The translations under genes and the position numbers were made by a program. Source: Jimgerdemannia flammicorona (Eukaryota). Taken from it: DNA of 64,000 nucleotides. This document shows, one piece after another, positions 542 to 36,252 of this stretch; within the stretch, counting starts at the first letter, position 1; each line of letters starts with the position of its first letter. The notes beneath the pieces are model-generated. The model searched no databases, had not been told where the DNA came from, and saw only the letters and a program-made list of their open reading frames with translations. The stretch is taken from NCBI GenBank assembly GCA_003990765.1, contig RBNJ01000010.1, positions 1-64,000 on the forward strand. Direction: 5' to 3'.

Positions 542-1354
542 ATGCCTACTGCTCACCAAACCTCAAGGTCAAGGAACCACCAAGGCATCTCAGTCAAGGA
601 AAAGATATTCCAAGACATCAGAAGAGCCATGAGGACCTGCTCCTAGTATCAACCTAGGTACTGCAGATCCCTATCACTTTATCCTCTACCACCATGAAAT
701 GGAAACAAGGATCACCATTGCTACTGAATGCCTCCAAATGTGGCAGGAGTATGAAATAGGAAACCTCCTCTGCCAGGAGTTCTCACAAGCCAGTCCTCAA
801 GAGCTACAAGATACCACTTCCATGGATATATGTAAGGCAAGGACAGCTAAAAAGATCCATCAGATCTTCAGGCATGCACCATGGTCAATCTCCAACTTGG
901 AGTATATTAGAGTCTCAGATTTCAGAGACCTATCATCTTACCATATCAATGTACTAGAAACTAGAGTAGCTACAGAAGCCCAGTCCACTATCACCCTCAA
1001 TAGTGATGAAGTAGAAGACTTCTGGCACCCCATCCTCCAGGATAACTCAGACCAATTCCTACAAGGGTTGATCTCAGTATTCTAAGGCCCAAGCATCCAG
1101 ATTAGACCTTCCCAAGACCCCACATTTGTCTCTTATTTTGTGGAAGAGAACCTCATAGATTGGAGAGCCCCTGATTTCCCCACTCCAAATGTGATGACAT
1201 TATCAGCAATGATGTCATCTCACATCATATCGAAGTATATGAAATGTACAACATACACAAGATGCACAATCTGCACAATGATAAATTCACAGATCTCATC
1301 TCCTTCAGTGACAATGAGGATGAAGCCCCCATGATCCTGAACTTTCTGCTCTAA
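542..1354 (+). pseudogene. ORF-X accessory gene inside the 5' LTR of A
   Basis: MPTAHQ...PMILNFLL*; its stops and indels are at different positions from those in the 3' LTR copy. Confidence 0.8.
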
Positions 1355-1362
1355 GTTCTTTA

Positions 1363-1500
1363 TTACACTGAATAATGCCAGCATCAGAATTTTGATGTAA
1401 CACTGGATAATGCCAGTACTGGCATTCTGAGGTGATGTGAAATTGTTTCAGCACTGGTATTCTGATGTGATACTGAATTATACTAGCATCCTGAACCTGT
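1363..1500 (+). repeat. 35-bp tandem repeat, about 4 units, in the LTR of A (second copy ~8574-8711)
   Basis: Units start at 1363, 1398, 1433 and 1468 (e.g. TAACACTGGATAATGCCAGTACTGGCATTCTGAGG). Confidence 0.85.
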
Positions 1501-1832
1501 ACAACCATCAGTGCCAACTCTGGAACTTAGTAGTTTTAGTTATTGGAATTTATATTTAGCTTTATATCTTAGCAACCATTGAATTATATTTTGTATAAAT
1601 ACCCCTCTTATTTTCTCTGAAATAAAGTCAGTCTTCTTAGTACAATACATACAATCCCTTGCAAGCAATCTAAGAGATAACAAGACAGTTAAAGATAAGA
1701 AGTTTGAGGACTATAAAACCTTGGGAAGGTACTCTAATAAGAACTTGCTTATAACAAACTTGAGTTAGTCTAAGAGATACATCTTGAAGAGAATCTGGCA
1801 TATTGGAAGAACTCAGCAACCACTATGTGACA

Positions 1833-1893
1833 ACTTGGTACCCATTGGCTGGTGATTCAAGATAAATCCCTCACTTTCAAGCTGAAAAATGAA
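1833..1893 (+). promoter_or_regulatory. Primer-binding site and leader of A, nearly identical to 16008-16068 of B
   Basis: ACTTGGT(A/G)CCCATTGGCTGGTGATTCAAGAT(A/G)AATCCCTCACTTTCAAGCTGAA directly follows both 5' LTRs. Confidence 0.85.
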
Positions 1894-1952
1894 CAACCCC
1901 CACAACAACTACCCTGACTACAAGAGTCACCTCTGCAAGAATTCAAGATAAG

Positions 1953-4900
1953 ATGGAAATGTGTCCCCCCATATTCTATGAATATACTACTGAAGAGTCA
2001 ATTCTGACCTTCATTGAAGACTTTGAACAATTTGCTGCCATATGAGCCCTTGATGTAGATGCACAATTGGCCCTTCTACCACTCAGCCTCAGAGGATCTG
2101 CCAGAGATAAGTTCAATGCAGCCACCATTGCTGATGCTGGTGCAGCCAAACTTGCCAATATGAAGGCCTTTCTCAGAACAACATATTATACTGAAGAGAT
2201 TAAGCAAGCTCTCAAGGACCAACTCAATACTATCTGCCAGAGACTTAGTGAAGATCCCAACTCATTCTATATCTAAATCTGCCACCAGATTGTCTTGGCT
2301 GGCTATGATGACTGCCTCAAGGAACAAATAGTAGATTCAACCTTCCTCAAAGGAGTTTACTCTGAAATTGCCCTAGCAATCTGGTCTACCCTAGCTGCAC
2401 TGACCCTTGATCAGAAAGTGGTCTTTGCACAGAGATATTGGACTGCCAGACACTCTGCCAAACACTCAATGGAGAAAATAACTGGCATCAAGATGGAGCC
2501 ATCAAAGCCAACTAGTATCATACTCACCACAGTTGTAAACAAACAACCAACCCCACCTACCCCCAAGATAGCCAAAGCTGACCCAGTGGAAGAACTTACC
2601 AAGCAGTTCGCTGAGATGACTGCACACCTTGGTGATGTTGTTAGAGAAGTCCAAAGTACTAACAGGAGACCAGTGCAGAGATTTGCAGCTGCTACAGAAG
2701 AATGCAATATCACATGCTTCAGATGTGGAGAAGAAGGCCACTATGCAAAGAGTTGCATAACTGAAACAAGATGTAAAGCCCAATCAAGCAATGCTAGTAG
2801 AACCAGAGAACAAACCAATGCAGTAGTCATTGAGGAGATTGGTGACACTGATGATGAAGAATACTACAAGAAGCTCGAATTCTACCCTGCTACTGAAGGT
2901 ACCAGAACCTGGTCCAAGCCCTATGACAAGAAGAGCAACAGCAAGCCAGTTAGAAGACCAAAGAAGACCCTAGCTGTCACTATTCAAAGTAAGACCCAAC
3001 TTGAGGAGATTGATCAAGATATGGAGTTAGATGAAGCTATCTGTCAAATCATTAAAGGCACTACTCCAGTCTCAGGAGAAAGTGAAAGCAAGAAGGAATA
3101 GAAGCTATGCAAGACCAAGATCCACCAGTATGACATCTACAAGGACCTCAAGAAACAGAAAGTCAATGCTACTTTTGGACAACTAGCCAAAGTCCCTGCC
3201 TTTAGACAGCAGTTGAGAGTAGGACTTACAACTATCACCAAGAATCAAGAGTACAAGATTGTAGAAGCTCACAATATATAGGAAGAATCTGAAGACCAGC
3301 ACAAGACATCAGCTTATACCCCATATCAGATTGAAGACTGTATCTTTGATACCATCATTGATACTGGTGCTGGAGGATGCCTCATGAGCAAGAAGGCAAT
3401 TGACCACCTAGGCTGGGACATTGAAGAGTCCACCAAGATGGTCTATATCATGGCAGATGGTACATGAGCTACCCCTCTTAGCAAAATCCAAGAAGTCCCC
3501 ATTAAGATAAGAGGAGCTATCATCCCAGTAGATGTGATTGTCACAAGTACCACTAACTATAATATCCTCATTGGCAACCAATGACTTCACAAGGCCAAGG
3601 CCATTATTGACCTCAATGTCCAGAAGATGCAGATCAACTATAGAGGAAGAAAGGTATGAGTCTCTATCAATGTCCACAAAGGAGTTCTATCAGATATAGA
3701 GGAAGGAGATGAGGAAGACACAGAGATCTTCATGTACTTAGTGAACAAGAACAAGAACAAGACACTCAAGCTCACAGATGAGCAGTAGTAAAACAAGATC
3801 ATCAATGGCTATGCCTCTCAAGAAAGATGCCCCCATGGTACTAGGATGTACTGCTCTGAACACCTGAATGACTGCTGGTCCTGTATTAGTGAAGTCAGAA
3901 AAATCCACCAACAGAAACATGAGCAAGAAGCTGCCAAAGCAAAAAGGAAAGCCAAAGAAGATGACCAGCCCCCAGAGCTTCAGGCTGACAGTAATGATGA
4001 GGAGGAACAAGAATCAGACATCACCCTCAAGGTTAAGAAGTTTCACCCTGAAGCCAAGATCCCAGAATAAAAGACCAAAGAAGCCATAGGAATGGACCTT
4101 GCCAGCATTTAAGATGCTACCCTTGAATCACAGACCACCACCCTACTTGGCACTGGAATTGGAGTCAAGCTGTCAGAAAACTATGCTGGAATTATCAAGA
4201 CTAGGAGCAGTCTGGCCAAAAGCAAAATCTCAGTTGAAGGAGGAGTAATTGACCCTGATTATACTGGCAAGATCTTTCTCATAGTCAGAAATCACAACCA
4301 TACCACCCCCTTCAAAGTTAAGAAGTATGACAGGATTGGCCAGATGCTGATCCATGAAATCAAGAAGCCCAAGATCATTGAAGCCATTGAACTCATCAAG
4401 ACCAAGAGAAGAGAACAAGGCTTTAGATCTACTAGAAGAGGAGCCTATGATACTACCAAGATTACCAAACTTAAGCACAAGAAAGACAAGGACCAGAACA
4501 AGCACACATATACCATTGGAGAGAACTTTCTTCTGGAGGAACAACTTCTCAAGATCCTGCACCAGAATGAAGGAGTACTTGCTACAGACTTTAGGGATAT
4601 CTACAATCAAGAACCTAAGTACTATCACAAAGTTGACACTGGTGATACCAAGCCCATTTACCAGAAAGCCTGATCCATACCATCTGCCTACAGAGAGTGG
4701 CTGTGAGCAGAACTCAAGGAAATAGAAGAAGCTGGAATCATCAAGCAAGCTATCAGCCCCTGGGCCTCACCCATTATTCTTGCCTCGAAGAAAGAAAGCA
4801 AACCTGGAGAGTTTGTGCTAAGACTCTGTATTGACTACAGGAAGCTCAATGCCATCATCAAGAAGGATAGACAGCCCTTGCCAAATATTCAAGAAATTCT

Positions 4901-5924
4901 TACCACCCTTGGAAGTGAAGCCAAATACTATACCACCTTGGATCTGTTCTCAGGCTTCCATCAGATAGGTCTCATATAAGATGCCAGTGAGAAATCAGTC
5001 TTTATTACACCTGATACCACCTATATCTATCTGTGAATACCATTTGGAATGTGCAATGCCCCAGTAAGTTTCCAGTGAATGATGAACAGAGTCTTCAGCA
5101 ATGAGATTGGAAAATGGCTCTTTGTCTATGTTGATGATGTGATCATCTTTAGCAATACTGTACGAGAATATGTCAATCACATACAGCTAGCCCTCAAGAA
5201 ACTCAAGGAGTATGGCCTCTACATCAAGCCCAAGAAATGTAAGTTTGAAGCTCAAGAAATTGCCTATCTAGGACACCTCATCAACCAGACTGGAATCCAC
5301 ACAGACCCCATGAAGATCAAGGCTGTTGTAGCCTACCTGAGACCCAGGACAACCACAGAAGTCCATGCCTTCCTTGGACTGGCCAGCTACTACAGAAGGT
5401 TCATCAAAGGATATTCCAACATTACAGCACCTATCTATGAGCTACTGAAGAAGGAAACCAAATTCAAATAGACCAAGGAGTACCAAGAAACCTTCAATGA
5501 ACTCAAGACCAGATTGATCCAAGCACCTATCCTCAGAAGACCAGATTGGAACCTAGAATTCATCCTGCAGACAGATGTGAGTACTATAGGACTTGGAGCA
5601 GTCCTAGCTCAGAAGAAAGATAGACATGAATATGACATCTCCTATGCAAGCTGAGGTACCTATAGAGTAGAACAGAACTACAAGTCATGCAAGCTTGAAT
5701 GCTTAGCAGTAGTTTGGACAGTAGGCAAGTTCCACTACTACCTAGCTGGGAAACACTTCACTATTCAAACAGACCACTCTGCTCTTGCCTGGCTATTCCA
5801 CACTCTGAACCTCAAAGGAATATATATCAGATGGATCTACAGGCTGCAAGAGTATGACTGCACTATCAAGTACTACTCAGGAATGACCAACACCAATGCT
5901 GATGCACTCTCAAGGACACCCTGA
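1953..5924 (+). pseudogene. gag-PR-dUTPase-RT-RNaseH polyprotein of A, one frame with internal stops
   Basis: Zinc knuckle CFRCGEEGHYAKSC; protease IIDTGAG; RT YVDD; RNase H LQTD...ADALSRTP*; ORF-track fragments 2067, 2295, 3846, 4344 and 5079 are all in one frame. Confidence 0.95.
4020..4437 (+). pseudogene. dUTPase domain of A (between protease and RT)
   Basis: Trimeric dUTPase motifs GMDL, RSSLA, GGVIDPDYTG, RIGQML, RREQGFRST. Confidence 0.92.
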
Positions 5925-5949
5925 AACACCCCCATCAAGACCATTCAAT

Positions 5950-7200
5950 ATGAATAAGGAGCTATACTATGGATTAATCAGCTACCTTGGGCAGCAGAAG
6001 ATGCCCAACCATTTTGAACCCTGAACAATCACTATCATCAACTAGACTTGGAAACAGTTTGAACTAGACAATACTACACTCAGAAAAGGAGAAAAGCTAG
6101 TAATATCCAAACACAAGAAGTATCAAGTAATAAAGGAAGTATATGAGCAAAGATACTTAGGAGGAATCAACACATATGACAAGGCAAGAAGAACCATATG
6201 GTGGTCCAAGATGGAAGAAGACCTGTAACAATTTGTCAAAGAGTATGACAAGTGCCAAAAACAGAAATAAGATCAGCAAGACCAGGCACCTGGGTCATCA
6301 AGAATTGAGTCTATCCCCTTCCACCACATTGCAATAAATATCATTGGACCACTACTAGTAATAATATTAGGAAACCACTATATTATAGTTATTGTAGACC
6401 TCTTCACCAAATGAATAGAGGCAGGAGTATTACAAGAAGCCAATGCCCTCTCTATAGCTGACTTCCTATACCAAGAAATCATTTGCTACTACAAGGTATC
6501 AAAGTAAATCACAACAGACTGTAGCATGGAATTCATCAATAGATTCCATGAGATAATGTATCAGAAATACAAGATTTAGCACATCAAGACCACCGCATAC
6601 TACCCTCAAGGAAATGGACAAATAGAGAGAACCAACAAGACCCTCAAGAACATCCTAGCAAAGATCTCAGAGACATACATATGAGAATTGGGATAACTAT
6701 CTCCCAACTACCCTCTCTGTCCTATGAGATATATGGTCACAGAGCACACACTTTACCCAAGAGAGCTGCTCTTCAGAGAAGAAGATTCTGATGGAACCTT
6801 AGCTATAAATCTAGACCTAACTTAGAGATAGGTTGATGCAGAAATCTGGAGACTATATCAAATCAGGAAGAAGGCTGAAGATTACATCACCAAGTCACAA
6901 GCACTGACAAGGAAGAATGTGGAAAAGAATCACAAGGCCCTAGAATCCATCTGAATCAGAGAAAAGGTTCTACTGTATCGAAATATGGTAGAAGCCTCAT
7001 GGTCATGAAAACTGGAGCCCAAATGGGAAGGACCCTTCTATGTGCAAGATATTAAGGGAACCACCTTCTGGCTTAGAAAAATCTCAGAGACTATACTGCC
7101 TACCATGGTACATAGGAACAGACTCAAGAAGTACCATGAACCTATACAAGAGAAGCAAAATGTGATGATCACCCATGAGGTTCTAGTCCACAAATCATAA
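5950..7200 (+). pseudogene. Integrase of A, in the +1 frame relative to RT-RH
   Basis: Starts MNKELYY; WWSKM, IIGPL, VDLFTK, PQGNGQIERTNKTLK, KLEPKWEGPFY motifs. Confidence 0.9.
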
Positions 7201-7513
7201 CAGCATGTTCCATAACCAGCAGGCTATCTGTCTGGACCATTCTCTAAGAGATATGGCACTAGCAACTACTCATCCATGAGACTTTCAAAGTCAGAGGAGT
7301 TCGAACTGTCAACTGATTGGTTAAGATCAGAATCAGGCCCTTGCTCTATATGAAGGGAGTAACTCTTCACCATTATGCCAAAATACAAAGGGAAGATGCC
7401 AGTCCATAAATACCACTTTTCAACCCCTTGCCAGAGGTTATGGGATTGGCAAATTTTTCAAAACTAGACCAATGAATAAGGACACTCAGGAAGATCCTTA
7501 TTCAGGAGGAAGA

Positions 7514-9043
7514 TGTAACAGTGACCTCAGAATGATGACATCAGCACAGGAGACAGTCTTTCCTTACAAGCTACCAGATCAGAGCACAAGGAGATCATAC
7601 AGCATATAAGATGAGCAATAATGACCAACTGTAAGTCATTGTGACCACAGCACAAGTACATTAAGAAATATAAAAGAAAGATTAAGGAACCACAGTAGCA
7701 GCAACCAACAAGACCCACCAATCCCAAAATAGCCCAAAGACTTACCACAAATGAAATGCCCACTGCTCACCAAATCTCAAGGTCAAGGAACTACCAAGGT
7801 ATCTCAGTCAAGGAAAAGATGTTCCAAGACATCAGAAGAGCCATGAGGATCTGCTCAAGAAGGACTTCTAGTGTCAACCTGAGTACTGCAGATCCCTATC
7901 ACTTTATCCTCTATTACTATGAAATGGAAACAAGGATCACTATTACTACTGAATACCTCTAAATGTGGCAGGAGTATGAAATAAAAAACCTCCTCTGCTG
8001 GGAGTTCCCACAGGCCAGCCCTCAAGAGCTACAAGATGGTACTCCCATGGATATATGCGAGGCAAGAACAGCTAAAAAGATCCATCAGATCTTCAGGCAT
8101 GCACCATAGTCAATTCCCAACTTGGAGTATATTAGAGTCTCAGATTTCAGAGACCTATCATCCCGCCATATTAATGCACTAGAAGCCAGAGTGGCTATAG
8201 AAGCCCAGTCCACTATCACCCTCAATAGTGATGAAGTAGAAGACTTCTGGCACCCTATCCTCCAGGACAACCCAGACCAATTCCTACAAGGGTTGATCTC
8301 AGTATTCCAAGACCCAAGCATCCAGGTTAGACCTCCCCAAGACCCCACATTTGTCCCTTATTTTGTGGAAGAGAACCTTATAGATTGGAGAGCCCCTGAT
8401 TTCCCTACTGCTGAATGTGATGACATCATCCCACATGATAGTGAAGTATGCAAAATGTGTGATATATGTGAGATGCATGATCTGCATAATAACGAATTCA
8501 TGGATCTCATCTCCTTTAGTGATGACGAGAATGAAGCCCCCATGATCCTGAACTTTCTGCTCTAAGTTCTTTGTTATACTGAATAATGCCAGCACCAGTA
8601 TTTTGATGTAACACTAGATAATACCAGCACTGGCATTCTGAGGTGATGCGAAATTGTTCCAGCACCAGTATTCTGATGTGACACTGAATTATACCAGCAT
8701 TCTGAACCTGTACAACCATCAGTACTGATCCTGGAACTTAGTAGTTTTAGTTATTGGAATTTATATTTAGCTTTATATCTTAGCAACTATTGAATTATAT
8801 TTTATATAAATACCCCTCTTATTTTCTCTGAAATAAAGTCAGTTTTCTTAGTACAATACATACAATCCCTTATAAGCAATCTAAGAGATAACAAGACAGT
8901 TAAAGATAAGAAGTTTGAGGACTATAAGACCTTGGGAAGGCACTCCAATAAGAACTTGCTTATAACAAACTTGAGTTAGTCTAAGAGATATACCTTGAAG
9001 AGAATCTGACATATTTGAAGAACTCAGTGACTACTATGTGACA
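7514..9043 (+). repeat. 3' LTR of A
   Basis: Preceded by the PPT and followed by the ATAT duplication. Confidence 0.97.
7756..8565 (+). pseudogene. ORF-X inside the 3' LTR of A (269 codons, two C>T/G>A stops)
   Basis: One frame; TAA at 7960 and TAG at 8107 are CAA and TGG in the 5' LTR copy. Confidence 0.85.
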
Positions 9044-9814
9044 ATATAGTCTGATTTCTAAATCAGTTTCTTCATCTGAATAGCAGAAATAACATCACAT
9101 CTGGGTTTTGTTTTCTTCATAGTATGCTTGAGTTGTAACTTGATATCTCTCAGAGAGATTATATTGGTTTACTAATTGATATAGGGGTTCTCCTATATAA
9201 GTCAGAATTTTTCAAGAATGAGGTTGTGTCCAGAGAGATGTGTAATGTAGAAGGTTTACCTTATAGTATAGTTCTGAATTATAGAAGTGCATTTTTGTAT
9301 ATTTAGAGAGTTTCTATATTATTCTATTTTCAAAAGTAGCAATGCTTCTTTCTGGATTCCTTTGCATCTTAAGATGGATTTTGTTAGTAGTTTCTTAATC
9401 AAGATAGCATTTGCTTTCTCCACTGTCAATAAGAACTTCAATAGAGTTTCCTTCAATTTTTCTTAGAAGGTAGATATATTCTATATTGGTTTCTTACTAG
9501 GTGGTGATGGTTTCTGAAGTAGTTTCTTCTTTCTAATCTTGTACTTCTCTATCTTTATCATTGATGTTCTTGATTTCTTCATCTTATAATTCTGGGATCA
9601 TTGGCTTATACTTCTTGGATTTAAGAATACATATGATATATTCTCTTATATACTTGAAACAGTATATCTTAATTTCATATAGATATTATCTTGTAGAGAT
9701 ATATCTGTTGGCAATATACTGATACATAGCATTTCTGGTCTCAGTCTTGAGATTCTTCAATGTGGACAATCTTCTGTACCTTGGTTTTCTCTTTGGCTTT
9801 ATCAGAGTACTTCT

Positions 9815-10235
9815 CTATTGATCTAAAGGTTTTTTTTTCTCTATTAGAGAGTGACAGTTTCTTTATTTCTTCTACTTCAAGGTCATTATATATTACTTCA
9901 ATGATAGCTTGAGCAATTCATTTTTCATATGTAATTTTGATGGTCTTTTATCTAATATTGTGTAATAGGATCTTAATCTTATCTTTAAATCCTTAGTCTA
10001 CAACTTCTTCAGCTATACAGAGTCTCTCTTCTTTAGCTAAACTATACTTTTCTGTAAGGTAGATATAGATTCCTTTAGGAACTTCCATTTCAATACCTAT
10101 ATTAATAGTTGCTTGCTTGCCTAGTTCAATGGTTACTTTCATGCTAGAGTAGAGGTCATAGCTAGCATCAGATTCATATACTTTATCTGAAATTTTTACA
10201 ATAATGTGAAATCTCTTAACTCTGATTTTCTTGGC
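9815..10235 (-). pseudogene. dUTPase of C-left (between gag and protease)
   Basis: Minus strand reads DASYDLYSS...SLAK...IAQAII...FRS; counterpart of 14630-15060. Boundaries approximate. Confidence 0.8.
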
Positions 10236-13200: not shown

Positions 13201-14629
13201 TGAACAAACTCTCAAATAATTGCTACTATAAAGCTAAGACTTTTCTGAACTATAAAGGATACTATATCTATTAAAGAAATCTCATTTCTATTACTGAATT
13301 CTCTGTACACAAGTAAGAATAAATCAGTAATAAGAACTATAAGCTGTTAGATCTAGTGAAATTCTTATTATATCATCCAGATCTAGGAAGATAATTGAAA
13401 AAACCTCTGAGACATTAGTGGCCCTAGCACTATTACAGAACTACTATCAAAAATATCTAGTCTACTAAAGATCACAGCAGACCAAACAGTTGCTCTGTCA
13501 AAACCACCAGTCTACAGACTCACTTACCTTAGTGATATTATAGAAGAATCAAGTCCAAACTATAATCAATATACTATAACAATAGAAGAAGAAGATGAGA
13601 CCCAACTATCTCACCAAATGAATAACAGAGACAGCAGAATGATATTAGTAGATAATAAGATAGCAATATTGGCTGATCAAGTAACTATACTCACTCAAGC
13701 CCTTTATCTCAGTATTGAAATAAACAAGTCTATAAAAGGACTTCATCTCATCTTATTTGAAGACAAAGTAGATCAAGTAATAATATTCATAGAATAAGTC
13801 AATATCAATTACTATACCAATAGATAGAATGATAATCAGAGCCCAGATAGTATTCTTGATAATAATATATACTATGAGATTGAAGATCTCTATATAACTG
13901 CAGACTCATAAGTAGAAAAGATCACCATTTACTTTATAGGTACAGTAGTCTAGTAGTGGCACAATCTACTAGTATACTCTCTTACTTGGGAAACCTATGC
14001 TGAAGTTGTTGTAGATAATAGAGATAATAATTACTCTAACTATGAAGCTCACCTAGCTACTATAAGATTAAAGAAGCTAATTATTTAACAGTTCTATAGC
14101 TCTGCTCATATTACTAAAGCCAGAACCAAGCTCAAGAATCTGTGATTCTATAATAATAGAAAAAAAGACCTTAAAGTATTCACTACAAGACTAAAAACTC
14201 TTCTAAATACTATAGAAGTGAAATACAGCTAATGAGAGCAGACTATAAATAGAATCTGAGCTGTCTATTTCTTCAATACTATCTCTAAATAATTATTAAA
14301 AAAAATCTATAAACAAGAATGACTCTATAATTGCCCACATGAGCAATAGTACTTAGGACAAGCTATCACTTAAGCATATATTATCCTTATAGCCCAAAGA
14401 CTAAAAGATAACTGAATCAACAATAAAGAAGATAAATGATGCCAATTTAAAAAGAAGTATAAACCTCAGAATGAGTCCTCAAGACTATAAAGAGAATTTA
14501 AGAAACTATCTAATAAGAAATTAAAGAAGAAAGTATATTTCTACTGATAAGAAAACCAATACCAACAAAAAGCTATCCTCCTCACACACTATCACTATGA
14601 TAGGAGATGACTCAAAAGAAATCTTCAAG

Positions 14630-15060
14630 AAAATCAAGATCAAGAAATTCTATATTACTGCAAAGATCCCAGATAAAGTACATAAATCTAATACTAGCTA
14701 TAATCTCTACTCTAATATAGAAGTGACCATCAAATCAGATAAGCAAGCAACTATTAGCACAGGTAAGCAACTAACTATCAGCACAGATATCAGAATGGAA
14801 GTCCCTAAAGAAATCTATAGAAAGAAGTAGCCTGGCTAAAGAAAAAAGACTCTATGTAACTAGAGGAGTTATAGACTAAGAATTCTAAGACAAGATTAAG
14901 ATCCTACTATATAATACTGAACAAAAGACTGTTGAAATCATATGTGGAAAATGAATCACCCAAACTATCATCAAAGTAATATACAATGATCTCAAAGTAG
15001 AAGAAACAATGAATTATTATCCTCCAATAGAGAAAAAAAAACCTTTGGATCAACAGAAAA
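14630..15060 (+). pseudogene. dUTPase of C-right (between gag and protease)
   Basis: AKIPDKVH..SYNLYS...ISTG...SLAK...GVID...FGSTE. Boundaries approximate. Confidence 0.8.
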
Positions 15061-20060: not shown

Positions 20061-20085
20061 AGGACCCTACCCCCACAAAATCATC

Positions 20086-24145: not shown

Positions 24146-27100
24146 TATAATAGAATGAATGAATGAGATATAACATACAATAAGTGATCACATGTTCTGG
24201 TGATGACATCATAATTAAGCATAATATATAAATGACAAATATAATAAATATAATGAATGAATGATGTGAATAAATAATATTCAGCTTATCTCCTGCAATC
24301 AGTACTATAGCAACTAGTACCATAGTAACTAGTACTATAGTAACTAATCATTGTCTAACAATAAAGGTCATAATTACAAACATTACCATAGTTATCAAAT
24401 TAGTCACTTATACTTAATCTGAAATTACAAACCAACTTGTATAAATATCTCCCAGTTTCTATCTAAAATAAAGCAGTTTTAGTTCAGTCCTTAATATAAT
24501 AATCAAGTTTCTCTCTCTATACATATATTCTCCTGAGTCTTAGTAATAATATTTAAGTAACTCTAGTATTTCTGACTAAACTTCAGAAGTCTAGCTAACT
24601 TCTGCCAGAACTGAGACTAATATATAAATTACAAAGACTTAAGTAAACTCATTGAACCTGAATTCCAAGGCAAATTCAGTCTATGTATAACAAAGAATAA
24701 GTTTCTTACAACTATAGTTAATAAGAAGGGTACTATCACTATAACTACTTTTAAGTAAATATTTCTTCACACCAAAGACTTCTTAGTATATATTATATAC
24801 TAAGTCTCTAAGTAATATCTTGTTTCTCTAATTATCCAAAGAATAAAAGAGAAGTAGAAATAAGAGTTATTATAACTTAGTAGTAGTAGAATTATCAATC
24901 CAAAAAGACATCAAGAATACACTTCTGAGAAGTTAGAATAAGACCAACCTTGGATAGCCCTAGAATCAACTGTAGATTCCCTAGAAATAAACCCCCAAAC
25001 TAGAGCTAGACAAGCTATTACTATTAGAACTAGGTGGTATCAGGAAACTATTGATCCAGAAATCCATCAGCTAGTAATTGACCAGATATACAGAGATCTA
25101 TATGAGGCCTTTAGGACTTTCTACCCAGGTCTTAAGAATATAGTCAGCTACTGTAGATTCTACATACTTCTCTATAACCACCTTAGAACTACTAGAATCC
25201 AAGAATCTACTATTATAGTCATCTAGAAATTTTTAAACTATATCTTATCCCATATAGTAAAAGAAGCAGCTACTAAGTAGATGGCATCTGATAGATATCA
25301 TCATACTTCTACCAGGACCTCTCTCTACTATAGACTAGTTATTTACTATGCCTCTGCTATAACAAGATATGATAACAAGCAAGCAGGATACCCACCCCCT
25401 ACTGCAGGTCCATCTATCTAGCCAGAATCTGATATCCTCTTTGAAGGACCTAGTTAATATGAGGATGCACTATCTCATCAGAGAAGAGAGTCAGATGAAG
25501 ACTCAGAAGAATATTAGTCTGATGATAGCTAATAAGAAATAGTAGGCCTAGAAATTTACCAAGGACCTACAGGTCAAGAACATCAGACCCCAGAACCAAT
25601 CCAGCCACCTATACAGAGGTTTGATTTACCCTCTCTTACAGGACTGTTTGATCTGATCTTTGAGAACCAAGTAACTCCAAGTCATATAGCACTATAACCT
25701 CACTAAGAAGAACAATCTTTAGAAGAATCTACCTCCATAGATCCACCACTAATAGTCAATATAATAATAGATACCAATATTGCAGCCCTGACTACCCAGC
25801 TGGCTATACTAGCAGAGATAGTAGAACAAATTGCCATATAGAACAAAATCAACCAAGACCTTGTGAATTCCTACCTTTAGTAGAAGAAATAGTAATATTG
25901 AGACCTTCATCAATACAGTTGATACAGAGTACTGAGCAAACCAATGGAATGATAACTGAGTATCTACAGAAATACTCACCAACAATCAAGACAATATTCT
26001 TCAATAGCTATTTGCAATATTAGTAGCATAAATAGAAACAGTAGCCATATTCTTTACTAGAATAGCAGCTGAGTTCTAGTGTACTTTAGAAGAATATTCA
26101 GTAACTTAGAAAGACTACTCTCAAGTCAATAGACAGACACTTGCCCATAACAGACTAGGTTGAGATGACCATACAGCAGGCCCAGGACTCAAGGCTTTGC
26201 TACTGACCAAATTCCAAAATATAGCCTATATATAAGAAATATGAAACAAATTAGCTCAGATGAAGTTCTATAAGAATAGTAAGGAGAATCTAGAAACCTT
26301 TACTACTAAGATAGATGTCTACCTCAAAATTATGGAACTTACCTACTAGGAAAACAATTTGGCCATTAATGATACTAGAGCTAATCATCTCTTTACAGCC
26401 CTACCAGACTGACTCACTCAGAAGATTAAGGAATAAGGTCCCCCCCAAGGATGTCTCCACTACTTATAGTACTTTGCCCAGATACATATGATATAAGGCT
26501 ACCATCCCCACTAAGACCTATTCTACTGATACTGGATATAACCTCTATAGTAGCCAAGACCTCACTATATGACCAAGTACCAATGCTATAATATATTCTG
26601 GAATTGCAATATAAGTCTCCAAAGAAACATACATTCATCTTGCTGAATGAAGTAGCCTGGCCAAAGAATTCAACATTGGACTAGAAGGAGGAGTAGTTAA
26701 TTAAGGATTTACTGGTGAAATTCATATTATCTTGTAAAATTTTGAAGATATCTCATTTGAAGTCAAAGTAGACCAAAGAATTACCCAAGCAATTATTGAA
26801 GAAATCCATCAAGATCTCTCCATTAAAGAAGTTCCTAAGCTCTCCCAGACAGACTATAGCAAGAAAGGATTTAGATCAACCAACAAACCCCCTAGTCAAA
26901 AGTTTACCACTATGAAGGAAGATGATGAAAACTAGTACAAGAGAATTATAGATAGTTATGTATCATATAGATGATGCCCTCATTCTATCCAAATGTACTG
27001 CATGGAATATATTAGTAAATACCATACATACCTCTCCAAAGTTTTCAGAATCCAATCTGAAAAATACCAAGTTCAATAGACTGAGGAACTTAAACAAGAC

Positions 27101-29963
27101 CACTCTTCTTATAAAGGATGGAAAGAGACTGACTTTGAGGAGACTGACAGCAATTGGAACAATGAGAATGAAGAGCTTAACCCTATCAAGAAGGAGGACA
27201 GTTGCATTAAGTTCACAGGCCAAGTTCACAGACAGAATGTCAATATCTTACTAGATAGTAGTACTATTGAAAACTATATCAATACCAAGACTACCAAGCC
27301 AAAGCAGACCAGCTACTAAAAAAAGGAGTGTTATCTTTAGTGATGGCAAGACTGCATCCTTGACTAAGATCTGTAAGGACCTATTGCTCAGGATTGGTAA
27401 ATATTAAGAAAGTTAGACTTTAGTATCATAGATCTCTCAGGACAAGATATTATTCTAAAAAAGGTCTAGTTGACCCAGTATAACTCAGACATCAACTGAA
27501 GGCAGAATGATCACTCTGATACCCCAAGAAGATATCAACTATCAAGGAATTGAGATCATCTCTACTATTCAAATGAAGAGACTCTCTTATAAAAAAGGAA
27601 ACACATACTTCATCTATATTGTACAAGAAGTCACTGAAGTCCTGAGTAGCTCAATCTCACTAGAAGCTCAAGAATTGTTTAAAGAATTCCAAGATATATT
27701 CCAGGAATCTCAAGGACTTCAACTCAAGTACTAAATCCAATATGAAATTAATCTTATTCCAGGATCTGAATCTTCATATAAGAGTATCTACTAGCTGATC
27801 TAATCTGAACTCAAGATTCTCAAGAATAAGTTGACCAAACTACTGGTCTAAGAATATATTAAACCCAGCTGCTCTCTATTTGGAGCCCCCATTCTGTTTA
27901 TCAAGAAATTGACTATAGAGCTCTCAATAAGATCACTATCAAGAACTAGTATATCTTGCCTAGAATTGATGAGTTGCTATATCAGATCTTCAAGGCCAAG
28001 ACCTTTTCTCTACTGAACTTGTGAAATAGTTATCACTAGATTCTCATTAATGAGAAGAATATTTACCAGTTCCAAGTCATGCCTTTTGATTTGACCAATA
28101 TACTAGTAATATTCCAGTATCTAATAAATGATATCTTTGGACTACTGCTCAATATTTGTATCCTTATATATATTGATAATATACTAATCTACAGTGAAAG
28201 AGTAGAGCTATACTATGTATATCCACCTCAGGCAGGTACTGATCCTTCTACAAGAATATCAGCTCTATGTTAAGATAAGTAAGTATAAGTTCTATCAAGA
28301 CCAGATTGAGTATCTAAGATATATCATCTCTGCTGAAGGTATCAATGTGGACTCCCAAAAGGTATCAGCTCTCAAGAATATTCCTATCTCCACTACCCTC
28401 AAGCTACTCTAGTACTTCCTGGATATTGCAGGTTACTACTGAAGATTTATCTAAGAATACTCTACTATTGCAGCCCCACTGACCAGTTTGACCTACAAAG
28501 GAGTGAACATCAAGACTGAATGGACCCTTGAGTATACTTAGACTATGGATCATCTCAAGAGACTCCTTACTGAGGCCTCAGTGCTAATTGTACCTAACCC
28601 TATTAAGCTATTCACTCTGACCACAGATGTCTCTAATATTGCTATTGGGGCAGTATTCAGTCAAGATCATCTAGTGGTCTATCTCTCTCAAAAGCTTAAG
28701 CCAGCAGAGACCCAGTATATTACCCATAAGAATAATTGTCACTATACTCCAAGAATGGCACTATTTCCTTCTAGGACAACCATTTGTAACTTATACTGAT
28801 TACTATACTCTGTGGTATATTCACAAACAGCCCATGCTGACTTACAGATAAGTCTGTTGAATGGAAATTATTACTAACTTTAATATAGAAATCAAGTATA
28901 TCTCAGGCAAAACTAACCATATGGCTGATGGTTTCTCTAGATACATAGAAGATAAACTTATCTTCATGGTTGAGATAATTAGATATCTCACTCAAATGAT
29001 CAAGAATAACTACCAATAGAACAGCCCTCTGGTGAAATTCCTTTAATTCTGTTAAGACCCAGAGGCTGAGATCCTAGAATCTATGGGGCAAATGTCTAAA
29101 AGGTTTACTTACTATAATAGACTTATCTATAGAGATCATGATAGAGTGGTTGTACCTAACAATAATACTCTGTAGCTCAAGATCATACAGGAACTCCATG
29201 ACACTCCTGTAGTAGGATACTTTGATTTTGAGAAGATCTACAATCTCCTCTCAAGAGAGTTCTACTGGCCAAAGATAACTAAGGATATCAAAGAGTTTGT
29301 AGCCTTATATAAGATATACTAAAGATTCAAAAGTGATAACAAGCTATCAGTAGAACTTCTGCAATCCCTGCCTATCCTGAGTTATAACTAGGATTAAATT
29401 GCCATGAACTTTATTATCCAGCTTCTCAAGACTAAGATAGGATGAGATACTATTGTAGTTTTTATAGACTATCTGAGCAAATAAGTCTATTTTATATCCA
29501 TCAAGATCACTGCCATAGTACCAGAGATTGCCAAGATCTTTCTCAATCAAGTATTCAGACTATATAGTATGTCTAGTATCATTGTATCTGACCAAGATGT
29601 CAAATTTACAAGTAACTTCTAGAAGGTATTCTTCTTCCTCCATAGGACCAAACTGAAGTTCTCTACTACCTATTACTCCCAAACTGATGGTCAGACTAAG
29701 TGAACCAATAGGATCCTTAAGTTGATGCTCAGTATCTTTTGCTATTATAAGTAGAATGATTGGGACAAGTATCTAGCCTATACTAAGTTTGCTTATAATA
29801 ATAGCCAGTAAACTTCTATAAAGAAGACCCCATTCTTTCTTAATCATGGTCAATACTCAAGGACCCCAAGCACTACTACAAAATCAGTTATCCCAGTAGC
29901 CTAAGATCTGGTCAAGACTATTTCTGATCTTATACAAATGACAAGAAATACTCTCATAAAAGC
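24146..29963 (+). mobile_element. Chromovirus-type Ty3/gypsy D, 5' part (LTR 24146-24874, long 5' ORF, gag, dUTPase, PR, RT, RH, IN)
   Basis: LTR matches the reverse complement of 33484-34235; decayed PBS at 24878; LLDSS, YIDN, TTDVSN, LHDTPVVG and QTDGQT motifs. Confidence 0.9.
26485..26885 (+). pseudogene. dUTPase of D (between gag and protease)
   Basis: DTGYNLYS...SGIAI...(R)SSLAK...GGVV..GFTGEI...RITQAII...KKGFRST. Confidence 0.88.
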
Positions 29964-30633
29964 ATATAGTAATAACTAGTATCTTATATATCAGAAGTTT
30001 ACTTTGGGACCCCAGAACCAGCAGAACATCTAGTAAACAAGAAGTATACCAAAATGAAGCTACTAGCTGAGATCAAATATCTCTTAGTTAGTTAGTCTGA
30101 TAATAGACCCTTTGTTCTATATGAGGATAGCCAGTCTTCACCAATACACTGATATAAATTTTGAGAAATTTTGATTAAGTATATTTAGTCTTATATAACT
30201 TAAGTACTCAATAAGAATATTAGTTCATAAGAAGGAAGAGATATAACAATTTCATAGTTATATTTTAGTCTTAGTACTTTTTTATACCTTTTCTCTAGTC
30301 TATTCTTACATATCTTTTCTTAAATATTCTACTATATTCCAACACCTTCCAAATACTTAGAAATCTTCTCTTAATACTAAGATATCACTAGAATATTCTT
30401 ATCTTTTCTTGGTACCAAGTATCTTATCTTAGCTAGTTATAGAACCTTTTGGAATATTGTAGAATTCTATTAATCATCTTTGCCAAAAACTTATTTCTAG
30501 GGGTTTTTCTTTTTTTCTAAGATCTTTCTGGATCTTTCTTTCAGATATTATATAAATATCCTTATTATTTACTTAGACTTACTAGAATTACTAAATTTAG
30601 CTACTTTCTCTTAAAGAAACTAGAACTATTATA
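29964..30633 (+). mobile_element. 3' end of element E (PPT and 3' LTR 30242-30633), displaced by the inversion
   Basis: LTR is the reverse complement of 52786-53253; PPT AAGAAGGAAGAGA; flank ATAAT versus ATAGT at the 5' LTR. Confidence 0.85.
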
Positions 30634-31121: not shown

Positions 31122-33483
31122 TATAATAAAACTATACCAATAGAATTAATATATTGTAGATAGTCAATGGTGACTATCAGCTCTAAGTTCTAAGTTCTTG
31201 AGAAAGTACTAAGTTTCAGTTATCTAATATGACAGAGTCTAAGTAATGCTTTTGATTTTAGTATTAGTAGAAATGGCCATGCTTATATTCTAAGTTGATC
31301 AGGCTCAGAATTATTAATAAGTTGGATCTGAGGAGTTTCTGTAATAAGAATACTACTTTATTTTTATATTCAGAAAAAGTAGAGCCAAGATTATAACATA
31401 CTTAGTATAGAGAGTATTTATATATATTTGAGGCTATAACTAAATATAGTGCACTAGATATATCTATATACAGTTATACTACTTTGGATAACTATGACTA
31501 CTAGTTGGAAATTCTATTGAAATTTTCATAGAAATTTCTATTGGAAATTCCAGAGGCTTATAATGATTTATTATATCCTTCTTTTCTTTGCTTGAGTCTA
31601 CTTATTAAACTTAGTACTAAACTCTAGGTATTCATCAAACTAGAGGGCAGTATACTAGACTACTTGAAAAGCAATCTCACTCTATTGTTTATTACTCAAA
31701 TTAATAATATTCTCAGGAGATACTTTATAGAGATAGTTAAGGACTTGAGGTCTGATACAGAAAAGGACATAGAGTTATTTGGTAACTATGTAAGTATAGT
31801 TATCAATAAAAAGATAGATTTACTACTTGGCAGTACTGAGGGTAGCTTTTGACAGATAAGATATTCTATATTATAGTACTTCTTAAGTTCTTATTTATAG
31901 TAGAAAGTCTAGAAATATTATATTCTTTCAAGATATTATTGGGCTTCATTTAGATCAGAGTCTCCAGAGATATGTATGTTAACAGATAGTAGTTCAGTGG
32001 AGTTCTATTGGTATTCAATTGCTCTAAGGACTGTAATAGTAATCTTATTTTTGACTTGTTCTTAGTATTATTACTGAGTATTCATATTAGAGGTAGAGTT
32101 ATCTATATAGAATTATTTCAGAATATTTATACTTCTTTTTACTGGAATTATTTAGAAATATAACTGTCTTTTGAAAATTTTATCAAAATTTCCATTATAC
32201 TAGGTATCTGTATCAAATTACTACTTCTTCTATATTTGGTAAAAGATTATCTTCTTTTTTCTAGATAGTATTATATTTAGAGTATCCTTTCCATTTTATA
32301 AGATAGTACCAGATGGGCTTGACAGCTTATCCAAATTAGTAATCCTTATGATCTAAGATGTAGTTGACTTTATATTCTGTTTGCTGATTGATGATTATTG
32401 GATCTAGGGGTAGTATGACTCTTTTTTTGAAAATGTTCAGAGTATATAGCTATAGATGTGATATATAGAACACTGGGTGAATTATCTCTAGTATTGCTGG
32501 GAGATCTAACTTATATACAATAGGTCTGTATTTTTTAAGAATCTTAAATAATCTATATAGCAGAATCCGAGTTTCTTTTTAGGACCTATATTACTCAGAG
32601 TCAGATGCTAGGTACTAAGTAATACTTGTTTTCTATTTTTAACTTCTTTTCTATTTTTGTCAGCATATACTGCTTGTATTTTTTGTGCTTCTATGAGAGT
32701 ATCTAATACTTGCTAGATGTTATCTTATATAGTATCAGTGATTTCTTATTCTATTAGTACTATAGTTCAGGTGGTAACTATAGGAGTTCATGAGTATTGT
32801 CCATAGTTCAAGTAAAATTATATCATCTTAGTACTTATACTTAAGCTGTTATTATATATAAATTCAGCTAGAGTTAGCTTTTTATCTCAATTATTTTACT
32901 TATAGCTATAGTAGATACTGAGTATCTGCTTCAGAGTTTGATTGGTTCTTTCTGTCTGGCAATCTGTTTGTAGATAGTATGCTGTAGATATTTTCAATTA
33001 TACTCCTAGGCTCTTGAAGAGTGCTTGCTAAAAGTTACTTATAAATTTTGCATCTCAGTTCAAGATAATTACTAATAGTAGTCTATAAAGGTGGAATATA
33101 TTATTGATAAACAGCTGTACTATTTTTGATACTATTACTATAGTTGTTATTACAACAAAGTGGGCTTACTTACTGAGGTGATCAATTAAGATGATAATTG
33201 TATCTCTTCCCTTTTTAGTTTTTAACAACTAGATAATAAAGTCTATTCTCAATTTCAGATAAGAATTGGTAGCAGCTGTAGAGTACCAGCTGGTGTCTAA
33301 TTGCTAGATTTATACCTTTGACAGATATTGCAGAATATAATATAGTTCTTGATATTGAATATCATTTTAGATCAATAAAAGTCTTGGGCAATATGTTAGT
33401 ATATCTTATCAAAACTCATATATCTAGCTATAGGTATATCATAGAGTTCTTATAGGATTCATAAGTAGATAGAAGTATCAGAG
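31122..33483 (-). mobile_element. 3' part of C-right (integrase, chromodomain, ORF-X, PPT, complete 3' LTR 31122-31575), inverted
   Basis: Minus strand reads IL(Q)ELYD...QTDCQTERTN...YLIKWKGY; LTR matches 12070-12440 and 12435-12817. Confidence 0.88.
31598..32085 (-). pseudogene. ORF-X accessory gene of C, with upstream TATA-like box (32124-32132)
   Basis: KITITVLRAIEYQ(W)NSTELL...KYYNI.YLI...K(R)LYVLF...KVSPENI aligns by eye with ORF-X of B; one frameshift. Confidence 0.78.
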
Positions 33484-36252
33484 TGTAATAACTCTTATTT
33501 CTACCTCTTTTTTATTCTTTGAATAATTAGAGAAATAAGATATTATTTAGGAACTTAGTACACAATATATACTAAGAAGTCTTCAGTATGAGGAAGCACT
33601 TGCTTGAAAGTAGTTATAGTGATAGTACCCTTCTTATCAACCATAGTTGTAAGGGACTTGTTCTTTGCTATGCATAGACTGAATTCATCTTAGAATTTAG
33701 ATTCAATAAGTTTACTTAAGATTTATATACCAGTCTCAGTTCTGGCAGAAGTTAGCTAGACTTCTGGAGTTTAGTCAGAAATACTAGAGTCACTTAGATG
33801 TTATTACTAAAACTCAGAAGAATATATGTGTGTAGAGATAAACTTGATTCTTATATCAAGGACTAAACTAAAACTGCTTTATTTTGAATAAAAACTAAGG
33901 GATATTTATATAAGTTGGTCTGTAATTTCTAACTAAATATAAGTAACTAATTTGATAACTATGGTGATATTTATAATTATAACCTTTATTGTTAGACAAT
34001 AGTCAGTTATTATGGTGCTGGTTGCTATGGTGTTGGTTACTGTGGTGCTGGTTGCTATGGTACTGGTTGCTGTGATACTAATTGCTAGAGATAAGCTGGA
34101 TATCATTTATTTGTATTATTCATTCATTATGTTCATTATATTCATCATTTATATGTTATACTCAATTATGATATTATCACTGGGTTTACATAATTGCTCA
34201 TTATATATTATATCTCATTTGTTTATTTTATTATATCTTTCTCTCCATAAAAGTCAATATCTATATTGATTTGAAAATTGAGAACTAGGGGAGAGATATC
34301 TTCCTCATCATCCTCCTTAGTAATATTGCTATCCTCACTAGAGATTGGGGGAGTAGTTGCTGATGGCTCAATGTCAAGAGTGGAGAAGTCAATGAAGTTT
34401 GCAAATAGTTCTTGAACTGAGATAAGTAGTAGAGTAGGAGTTCTCCATCTAATATAGTTGGGGCCATCTAAGTAGGGTTCTGGGTCCTTATGTCTAGGGA
34501 TATTAATTCAGATAGACAGTCCTTTAAAGAGATCAGAGAGACCTTAGAACCATTGGTCTGAGTTATTATTCAGGAGGGGGCTCTAGTAGGGTTTGCAGTC
34601 AATAGACTTGAGAGTAATCCAGAAGTTAGCTTATTGGACAACCTTAATCTCTAGTTCATCAACCTCAGAAAAGAGGAGGTTCTGGAAGTTCTTCAGTTAT
34701 ATAGTTGAGGTTGGAGATTGCAAAAAGTATATGGCATATAATTTGATAGATCTTTTTGGCTAGTCTTTGCTCATGCCTGTCCAGGTTAGTCTAGTCTGAG
34801 ACCTGGTCAACAGGTAGGCCTTTAGTATGTTGAAGAAGTTGATGGCTAATTTTATATTTATATCAGATTTTTAGGTAGCTAGTAGCAAGGTAGGCCCTTT
34901 TGATGAGTTCATAGTAGTTAAGAATATACTGTCCTAGGTCCTAGCTAGAGAGGTTAAGGGCCTCAGAGTAGCAGTTTCTTTCTTAGATAGTAATCTGGAT
35001 ATGTCTAAAGAGACAGTCAATCTGACTTAGGAGAGACTGGCTATGGTGGGCTGTTTGGCAGCAGGTAGCAGGCATTCTTATTTTGTCTTTTCTTTGGAAA
35101 AGAGGAGAGAGAGATGGGAGTTGTAGTATGTTCCTACCCTAGATATTTATACTTGTTTACCCATCTGATGTGACTTCATTTTAATCATATTTTTAGGGAA
35201 AAAAAGATATAACCTATTGCTGTAAGTGAGACATATACTGGTCATATGAGAAAATACTAATTTCAAAGATATCACTACATTACAATTGTGGTTACATAGG
35301 GTTGACAGATCTTGGTCTTCTTTTTTTTTTCTTTATCAGTATATTTACAAGGACTGGTCATTCTTATCTAGGGTGAGGGCTCTCATTGTTGTAGCTGAGG
35401 GTTTGAACCTTTTGGAAATAGTATTTCTTATAATCTAAGGTAATTTCTAGTAATAATATCTGTCATGTGGATGGACTTGAGATTGGTTCCAACATTGTTG
35501 GCTTTCTTGAGTTCTATATGAAGTATCTATTACTCTCTAATAGAGATGATACAGATGGTATGAATAGAGTTATTCAAATGTATTTTGCTGCACCTTACTG
35601 GGTTATTCTTTACCTAAGTATCCTCTTGTTGATTAATTATAGTATTCCTTTTCTTATAATATTTGGTATTATATATTCTGGATACATAACTATATATTAT
35701 CTTTTTTGTTTGCTATGTATACTAGGTTTAGAGCTATAGTTCCTTTCTCTGCTGAGGAGTAAGTATTTCCCATATAGTCCTGAAGGGCTTCATGTGTATT
35801 CTCCAGTACTTCTTCCTTTTTCCAGATAGTGTCATGAGTGGAATAACCCTTTCACTTAATAAGGAAAAACTACTTAAACTGCTTTGATATGTTTGCAGAT
35901 ATTGTGGTCAAGTACTTTTTCAATTTCAAATTTCTTATAATTATTGATTCTAATTGAGAGTAGTGGTGGAACTGTATATTTGAAGAATGGGTTTATATAG
36001 TAGTCCACTAGTTGGCTAATATAGAATACTGGGTGTACTTGAATATTATAGGGGAGTTGTAACTTATAGTTAATTTTACTGATTTTTTCCACAATCTTAT
36101 ATAGTCTAATTCTTCTAGTATAGAGTTTCTTAGCTAGTTGCTATGCCAGGGTGTCTGGATAGAGATGGTCTGTTTTAAGTATGACTATGTTACTAATATT
36201 ATAAGAGACTTCCCTTTACTTCAAGTTTACATGCTTAGTCTGATAGTTCTGG
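33484..36252 (-). mobile_element. 3' part of D (IN C-terminus, chromodomain, extra 3' ORFs, PPT, 3' LTR 33484-34235), inverted
   Basis: VHPVFYISQL...FEIEKVLDH...LIK(W)KGY; PPT GGAGAGAAAGA; joins in frame to 29963. Confidence 0.88.
34240..35075 (-). pseudogene. ORF-X accessory gene of D, with upstream TATA-like box (35144-35152)
   Basis: Collinear by eye with the LTR ORF of A over nearly its full length; small frameshifts; 3' end approximate. Confidence 0.82.

Follow-up and report, generated by a model that had tools for sequence, protein, structure and literature searches.

ORF-X, an accessory gene family of dUTPase-bearing Ty3/gypsy retrotransposons in Jimgerdemannia flammicorona, carried in the long terminal repeats of one family

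What kind of gene is carried by several families of a simple retrotransposon and, in one of them, stands within the long terminal repeat (LTR) itself? The question is raised by a stretch of 64,000 nt of Jimgerdemannia flammicorona (contig RBNJ01000010.1 of assembly GCA_003990765.1, positions 1 to 64,000, hereafter the window), in which an original prediction, made from the letters alone, had placed an uncharacterised accessory open reading frame (ORF), called ORF-X, in four Ty3/gypsy elements named A, B, C and D. All five of its stretches, including those in both LTRs of A, were found again by reading the sequence (Table 1). Our preferred answer, to which we give a probability of about 0.6, is that ORF-X would be the third ORF (ORF3) of a related group of dUTPase-bearing gypsy elements, 3'-located and served by a promoter of its own, with 3' ends that have been exchanged between families and a product that acts in trans.

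Natural intact homologues were used for comparison in place of repaired or consensus sequences, and profile hidden Markov models (HMMs) built from database homologues were scanned against 642 six-frame chunks of the window. The A/D-type HMM matched D in two frames (E-values 1.5e-28 and 9.5e-25), which places a frameshift near 34700; it also reached B, in the proper reading frame, at 0.015, with no other chunk below 1. The B-type HMM found C at 2.6e-5 and A at 0.006. With tblastn, the copy in the 3' LTR of A as query of the window retrieved D at E-values of 8e-11 and 4e-8, and B and C were joined at 1e-4 with C as the query and at 0.3 in the other direction. Concerning the database proteins, the intact P0016 aligns with A at 44% over 190 aa and with D at 48-49%, and the intact B-type protein P0008 matches A with an E-value of 3e-4. 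Profile-profile alignment of the long and short families (hhalign) gave a probability of 70% and an E-value of 4e-5 over 104 columns, and its conserved positions, (W/F)QEY..(I/L)G..L and AK(K/R)IH(Q/K)(I/L)F...SDF, reproduce the shared core motif that had been read by eye. The proposed homologies of A with D (about 1e-28) and of B with C (3e-5) also hold. Judged by these comparisons, the similarity of A and D is far beyond chance, that of B and C is moderate, and that of A/D and B (0.006-0.015 by HMM, 4e-5 by hhalign) is weak, yet it was obtained in both directions and in the correct frame. The ORF-X family is real on this evidence and joins all four elements, with links that decrease in strength from A-D through B-C to A/D-B.

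Of the candidates returned by a word-indexed protein search, 6 of 167 (A type) and 7 of 9 (B type) were significant homologues, and many of these are cut off by the ends of short contigs. The A-type profile retrieved five sequences at E ≤ 0.001 from 1.84 billion representative proteins, all members of the family. The database homologues have open frames of 88-342 aa. Those complete at the N-terminus begin with MP... (long form) or MANN... (short form), and the MP start is kept in A, D, P0003, P0016, P0017 and L001, a 1345-bp locus that was the one relative among 61 pattern matches in a scan of metagenome DNA. L001 harbors a single long frame, an intact ORF-X of 323 codons with no comparable antisense frame, and is 68% identical to A at the nucleotide level. 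Over 267 aligned codons of A and L001, the proportions of non-synonymous and synonymous differences were pN 0.28 and pS 0.73 and the ratio of the corresponding rates (dN/dS) was 0.13, with dS saturated; the first 210 codons alone gave a dN/dS of 0.11, and these values depend on L001 as the one external DNA locus. A pS of 0.73 against a pN of 0.23-0.28 means that constraint acts on the protein and not on the DNA. The suggestion that the gene has been kept by selection is borne out by a ratio of about 0.12 (0.11-0.13), which is not near 1, and by the intact homologues in public data, and on these grounds ORF-X is a protein-coding family under purifying selection.

The same data bear on the idea that ORF-X is a dead or chance frame preserved by constraint on LTR regulatory DNA, as its location inside the LTR of A and the stops in all window copies might suggest. 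This idea is largely refuted by the protein-level constraint, by the one long open frame of L001, which has no antisense counterpart, and by the location of the gene outside the LTR in B, C and D, and we consider it almost certainly wrong. The element family is abundant in soils: thousands of short soil metagenome contigs from several studies (2348 in one run), all of DNA type and drawn from four runs, match positions 6900-9100 at 80-99% and are sparser where the hypervariable linker of ORF-X lies (8380-8527). Among the ten runs listed for the sequence there was no RNA run, and those of DNA are soil metagenomes.

Two forms of the protein were distinguished. The long form (A, D, L001, P0003, P0016 and P0017) has about 270-340 aa and consists of a basic N-terminal region of 60 residues, a helical N-domain, a C-domain block, a hypervariable acidic linker and an acidic tail. 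Its first 60 residues carry a charge of +8, its N-terminus includes an Arg-rich stretch, the net charge of the whole is -20 to -39 and the C-terminus is acidic. The second conserved block reads LE..VA.EAQS.I...S.E...W.P.L.DNPDQ(F/W)LQGL...F.GP.I....PQ.P...PYF, and the D/E-rich tail, in which hydrophobic residues are embedded, ends with (I/V)LNF. The short form (B, C and P0008-P0014) has about 150 aa, is near neutral and shares homology with the N-domain only. No membrane segment was found in any of eight family proteins (maximum Kyte-Doolittle mean over 19 residues 0.19-1.05), in agreement with the earlier statement that ORF-X is not env-like.

Domain and fold searches gave the family no known relatives. 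Pfam at E ≤ 10 returned noise only for A (best 0.08, far under the cut-off) and no matches for B and C, a sequence profile search of the PDB gave no match at E ≤ 10, and a search of the ESM Atlas with P0003 and P0008 retrieved only unnamed or unrelated small helical clusters, at or below the chance level. The Atlas model of P0003 has a predicted local distance difference test score (pLDDT) of 0.35, and AlphaFold2 with family alignments reached a mean pLDDT of 47.0 for the long form (11 sequences) and 49.0 for the short form (8 sequences), the models being all or mostly helical. Because these models are of low confidence, comparison of folds is uninformative: Foldseek with the long-form model against PDB and BFVD found no match at E ≤ 0.001, and the quality of the model makes the rows that it lists meaningless. 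As far as Pfam, PDB sequences, the ESM Atlas and Foldseek with this low-confidence model extend, the gene is uncharacterised, as had been supposed.

Elements A and B are LTR retrotransposons of the Ty3/gypsy type (Metaviridae), with paired LTRs that have TG..CA ends, a primer-binding site (PBS) after the 5' LTR, a polypurine tract (PPT) before the 3' LTR, and the Pfam domain order gag CCHC, protease, dUTPase, reverse transcriptase (RT), RNase H and integrase. The PPT directly adjoins the LTR start in A, B and D, and the LTR of B is preceded by the same TTCAGGAGGAAG tract as that of A. In B the ORF-X ATG overlaps the final pol codons in a different frame, in D the last codons of the gene overlap the PPT (34246-34236) and the LTR start, and in both the PPT follows ORF-X, which is single-copy. 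In C the gene is located after the SH3 domain and a putative chromodomain and before the 3' LTR. In A the gene follows both the PPT and the LTR start, with its ATG 240 nt further on. Downstream of the stop, at 240 nt in A and 180 nt in L001, stands an LTR core module, TATAAATA-(19-21 nt)-AATAAA, which is present in the LTRs of A, B, E (a further element of the window) and D and in L001; it was counted nine times in the window against 0.14 expected, with six of the nine in the A, B, E and D LTRs. We infer that this module comprises the genomic promoter and the poly(A) signal at the U3/R border. Since ORF-X of A is situated between the LTR start and the core module, it is duplicated in both LTRs and would lie inside U3, a location predicted for family A only and relative to a putative U3/R border.

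The nearest parallel for this location comes from mouse mammary tumour virus (MMTV), in which sag is an ORF in the U3 of the LTR and encodes a type II membrane glycoprotein, a superantigen of a vertebrate retrovirus. ORF-X of A resembles sag in being a complete accessory ORF in U3, carried by each of the two LTRs and 3'-terminal in the genomic RNA, but differs from it in having neither a membrane segment nor a match in Pfam or PDB, and in occupying the LTR in family A only. For sag, see PMC2118998. Open-access texts, searched to a limited extent, contained no account of a gene borne by the LTR of a fungal retrotransposon, and the phrase 'LTR ORF' appeared there mainly in MMTV papers.

Position is also what could make ORF-X look like a C-terminal extension of the Pol polyprotein, or the leftover of one, produced by readthrough or frameshifting from integrase, given the ATG of B that overlaps the last pol codons and the genes of C and D that follow the putative chromodomain on the same strand. 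In A, however, a stop, a spacer of 375 nt and the PPT/LTR border separate ORF-X from pol. The conserved MP start, at which the database proteins begin, and the upstream TATA box further argue against an extension, and no fused form was found among proteins of 476-2000 aa, which is weak evidence; we regard the extension as quite improbable.

The TATA box in question is positionally conserved. The motif ATATAAAAGRR occurs four times in the window, both strands included, against 0.63 expected, a count reached in none of 100 shuffles, and three of the four sites precede an ORF-X ATG, by 87 nt in each LTR of A and by 86 nt in B. The box of B is formed by synonymous ATA-AAA (Ile-Lys) codons, where A reads ATT-AAG (GATATTAAGGGA) at the homologous pol site, and the flanks of the A and B boxes are otherwise not alignable with each other. 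L001 begins with GAATATAAAAGGG, 65 nt before its ORF-X ATG. A dedicated promoter, with a short mRNA that would end at the poly(A) site of the genomic RNA, is supported by these sites, not proven.

The relationships of ORF-X do not follow those of pol. Nucleotide identity between A and B is 66-69% from 1787/15963 to 7138/21271, ends exactly at the ATG of B ORF-X (7138/21271) and returns only over the 45 nt that lead up to the PPT and in the core and end of the LTR. In translated comparisons of pol, A and B share 54% over 1297 aa and either of them reaches 29-43% over short stretches with C, D, E and a further family F, which form a second group (C-D 48-49%, F-E 53%, F-D 49%, C-E 45%). The ORF-X type, by comparison, is long in A and D and short in B and C, and the HMM scores of A ORF-X are 95+83 bits to D against 9.8 bits to B. 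The claim that ORF-X relations cross pol relations is upheld, with A and B close in pol yet long and short in ORF-X, and C and D close in pol yet short and long. The accompanying division into elements without a chromodomain (A, B) and chromoviruses (C, D) fared less evenly. A and B indeed have none, their pol ending about 25 codons past the SH3 motif, whereas the chromodomains of C and D, recognisable by eye downstream of clear SH3_Tf2-1 matches, are below the curated Pfam cut-off of 25.1 bits (E-values 0.016 and 0.036, 14-16 bits).

The ORF-X proteins of A and L001 are 62% identical and those of A and B under 25%; as the former value is found at a nucleotide distance like that between A and B, parallel divergence cannot explain the latter. 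This discordance is most simply explained by an exchange of 3' ends, made up of the ORF-X type and most of U3, between related families. An origin of the 332-nt spacer after pol in A (7139-7470) as a relic of B ORF-X was not supported, the local alignment score being 20 against a shuffle mean of 18.8, a score reached by 97 of 300 shuffles; resemblance to B is confined to about the last 45 nt, which take in the PPT. Exchange between lineages, as originally proposed, is supported in part: the discordance with pol argues for it, but all four families are related, as the shared dUTPase and LTR core point out, so the shuffling is within one group, and ORF-X may be ancestral to that group with its 3' ends swapped among relatives, as opposed to a module that crossed unrelated lineages.

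A reading without any exchange takes ORF-X as an ancestral, fast-diverging gene that was truncated independently in B and C, with A having only shifted its PPT. The dUTPase and core module common to all families, the PPT common to A and B, the N-domain common to all ORF-X proteins and a B-C link that is only moderate are in line with it. It must, though, account for a pol about 68% identical in nucleotides between A and B beside an ORF-X under 25% identical, when A and L001 keep 62% at the same distance, for a similarity that stops abruptly at one point, and for an A ORF-X that is much closer to D although the pol of D belongs to the distant group. We hold this reading to be unlikely, but not so unlikely as to be set aside.

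Third ORFs and their sharing have been described elsewhere. Passages on the bdelloid rotifer LTR retrotransposons (Rodriguez, Kenefick and Arkhipova, 2017; PMC5408684) describe dUTPase-bearing gypsy-like elements with varied ORF3s after pol, and the same ORF3 type across unrelated retroelement lineages, interpreted as modular gene sharing. In those passages (PMC5408684) the rotifer ORF3s are env-like or encode a GDSL lipase or DEDDy exonuclease, whereas ORF-X has no known domain or membrane segment and is within the LTR in one family. Passages of Novikova et al. (2010; PMC2864245) treat fungal Ty3/gypsy elements in which a dUTPase stands between protease and RT and of which at least one has an 'add. 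ORF' of unknown function. This 'add. ORF' is labelled in a figure legend, and the passages in question make no mention of family-level analysis, promoter, LTR location or exchange for it (PMC2864245).

Several observations weigh against exchange, against a dedicated promoter or against a defined role for the product. E and D have 80% identity in their LTRs, but their pol regions (24873-30245 for E, 42300-45300 for the D part called D1) share about 39% at the amino acid level and are not alignable as DNA, so that the pol partner of D ORF-X, D1 or the E family, is uncertain: either the 3' part of D belongs to the E family or a further mismatch of LTR and pol is present. The short forms of B and C could be independent truncations. 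The B-C link depends on the very decayed C copy, which the A/D-type profile scan of the window did not reach. TATA-like words are common in the AT-rich copies of D and C (about 0.3 per 50 nt by chance), and therefore only A, B and L001 carry weight, of which A and L001 are relatives; promoter use, transcription start and poly(A) site are, moreover, all predictions. Finally, the models are too poor for any class of fold or function to gain support from them.

The element map on which these comparisons are placed (Table 1) was obtained by self-comparison of the window with blastn and tblastx and by Pfam on all stop-to-stop frames of at least 70 aa, and shows a nest of decayed Ty3/gypsy elements. 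The 5' part of family F is present as an inverted duplication of 7.2 kb, one arm of which received A and the other B in independent insertions. In D, the RT and integrase are followed by a 6-kb insertion of a long interspersed nuclear element (LINE)-like sequence, the integrase SH3 domain, a putative chromodomain, ORF-X and an LTR. ORF-X was not detected in E by the profile scans of the window, and E, which appears truncated near 30245, probably has a dUTPase as well (26498-26830).

Table 1. Positions in the window of the ORF-X copies, their putative signals and the elements that carry them.
Feature	Position	Strand	Remarks
ORF-X long form, A 5' LTR	542-1354	+	decayed, at least 2 frameshifts, several stops; HMM E-value 3e-100
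ORF-X long form, A 3' LTR	7756-8565	+	best copy of the window; 269 codons, 2 stops (codons 69, 118)
ORF-X short form, B	21269-21730	+	153 codons, 4 stops, no frameshift; between pol end and PPT/3' LTR
ORF-X short form, C	31598-32085	-	12 stops in 162 codons; before LTR 31506->31113
ORF-X long form, D	34223-35075	-	one frameshift, about 8 stops
ATATAAAAGAA TATA box, A	454-464, twin 7668-7678	+	87 nt upstream of A ORF-X ATG
ATATAAAAGGG TATA box, B	21182-21192	+	86 nt upstream of B ORF-X ATG; inside integrase C-terminal coding sequence
TATAAATA, D	35144-35151	-	76 nt upstream of D ORF-X ATG; AT-rich context, weaker
A core module TATAAATA-N19-AATAAA	1594-1626, twin 8805-8837	+	
Element A	300-9044	+	LTRs 1534 bp, 89.5% identical (blastn self-match); ends TGTAAC...GTGACA
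Element A 5' LTR	300-1833	+	1534 bp; TG...CA ends; PBS at 1834
Element A 3' LTR	7514-9044	+	blastn self-match to 300-1833
PPT of A, AGGAGGAAGA	7504-7513	+	directly before 3' LTR, upstream of ORF-X
Element B	15550-22225	+	LTRs 459 bp, 92.6% identical
Element B 5' LTR	15550-16008	+	459 bp
Element B 3' LTR	21767-22225	+	459 bp; core TATA/AATAAA module 22018-22049; no ORF
F LTR, called U	12431-12825		
F duplication arms	57-298 + 9049-12425 vs 12425-15550 + 22224-22730		arms 76-78% identical, inverted
Element C	33482->31113	-	3' part of family F; terminal 31506->31113 matches U at 81-84%
Element E	24146 to about 30245	+	5' LTR 24146-24872
Element D, RT and integrase	45173->42657	-	
LTR after D ORF-X	34241->33486	-	80% identical to E 5' LTR (24146-24872); core module 33910->33878
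dUTPase domain between protease and RT	4113-4670 (A), 18174-18542 (B), 9996-10253 and 14525-14827 (F arms)	- for 9996-10253	

Other features of the window were also annotated. Among the differences between the two LTRs of A, 130 of 136 substitutions are transitions with a CpA/TpG bias, a decay like that of repeat-induced point mutation (RIP) which fits a fungal host and with which the AT-rich stretches (24-35% GC) at 9-16 kb and 22-36 kb are likewise consistent. Taken with the dUTPase and chromodomain types of gypsy element known from fungi (PMC2864245) and with the soil metagenomes that contain the sequence, this decay makes a soil fungus the probable host. The LINE-like element is present as two inverted copies, at about 36200-42300 (+ sense) and 46029-52000 (- sense), which are 64% identical over 1.9 kb; its RT (Pfam RVT_1, E-value 1.8e-17) has the motifs GVPQGDSL and FVDDMVV, its sense strand has a great excess of G and very little C (GC skew 0.4-0.5), and one copy is that which interrupts D. 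A repeat at 30245-30633 is 85-88% identical, in inverted orientation, to 53250-52786, with TATAAATA...AATAAA at 52945->52915, and is probably the LTR of yet another element. A Tc1/mariner-type DNA transposon (54295-55904) has terminal inverted repeats of 235 bp, 95% identical, and broken pieces of helix-turn-helix (HTH), HTH_Tnp_Tc3_2 and DDE_3 transposase. The sole apparent host gene seen is an open frame at 60382-60867 (-) with a basic helix-loop-helix domain (Pfam HLH, E-value 5e-14), in the GC-richer right end.

Returning to the reading that we prefer, the steps by which the gene would act and move can be outlined. In B, C and D, ORF-X would be carried between pol and the PPT, at the 3' end of the genomic RNA, and in A the PPT upstream of the gene would lead to the copying of TATA box, ORF and LTR TATA/poly(A) module into both LTRs. 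Transcription from its own TATA promoter would give a short mRNA ending at the LTR poly(A) site, and for the A type expression might proceed from either LTR, even from a solo LTR. The 3' ends would be traded between pol lineages, likeliest by template switching of co-packaged RNAs, since an exchange of this kind is what such switching would be expected to produce in the course of reverse transcription.

The product would be soluble and probably nuclear and would act in trans to favour the expression or RNA handling of its own element, comparable to retroviral accessory proteins of the Tas/Tax or Rev/CERV type and not to structural or entry proteins. A regulatory or RNA-handling factor is favoured because of the 3' position, the apparent promoter, the basic Arg-rich N-terminus, the lack of a membrane segment and the acidic tail. 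In foamy viruses, Tas/Bel1 is the product of a 3' accessory gene that reaches into U3, is served by an internal promoter in the upstream coding region and has an acidic C-terminal activation region. By analogy, ORF-X may be likened to it in its 3' position, in a box within upstream coding sequence (B) and in its acidic C-terminus, although the two have no detectable homology and differ in host and element class. Within Ty3/gypsy elements, passages of PMC10309623 describe CERV, a non-structural protein that serves the nuclear export of the genomic RNA of its own element, Cer1 of C. elegans, and ORF-X can be likened to it, by description only, as a non-structural protein encoded by the element. 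That ORF-X regulates the expression or RNA of its own element is put forward tentatively, with the odds against it. More doubtful still is the further proposal that the A-type LTR is a self-contained gene, such that full elements and solo LTRs would supply a nuclear factor that activates or protects cognate copies, and the cassette would move by 3'-end recombination.

Alternatively, ORF-X could counter the defence of the host genome, as an anti-silencing or anti-RIP/methylation protein comparable to VANC of the plant VANDAL transposons, instead of regulating the element itself. In favour of it are the heavy, transition-type and CpA-biased decay of repeats in this genome and the family-specific, fast-evolving and modular character of the gene, as would suit an arms race. 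No similarity to known proteins was found in the Pfam, PDB and ESM Atlas searches, however, and purifying selection of 0.12 over the conserved domains is atypical of an arms-race interface, even if the linker is hypervariable. We judge a role in counter-defence to be clearly unlikely, less so than an extension of Pol.

Extra ORFs are frequently recorded in LTR retrotransposons but are seldom understood. Third ORFs and their sharing were already known, and what is new here is the protein family, the unusual LTR-borne arrangement and the positionally conserved promoter box. ORF-X is a selected family without known relatives, with a promoter-like box in a conserved position, two architectures and two positions, before the LTR and in U3. 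If its dedicated promoter is used, every A-type LTR would be a complete transcription unit, and if solo LTRs express ORF-X, then the role of LTR remnants would go beyond that of passive regulatory DNA. The A-type LTR gene, if the reading is true, would be a case of a regulatory gene in the manner of retroviruses having arisen within a simple retrotransposon of fungi, and the family as a whole may offer a tractable case of how simple retrotransposons gain regulatory genes, how LTR borders move and how 3' modules are traded between lineages.

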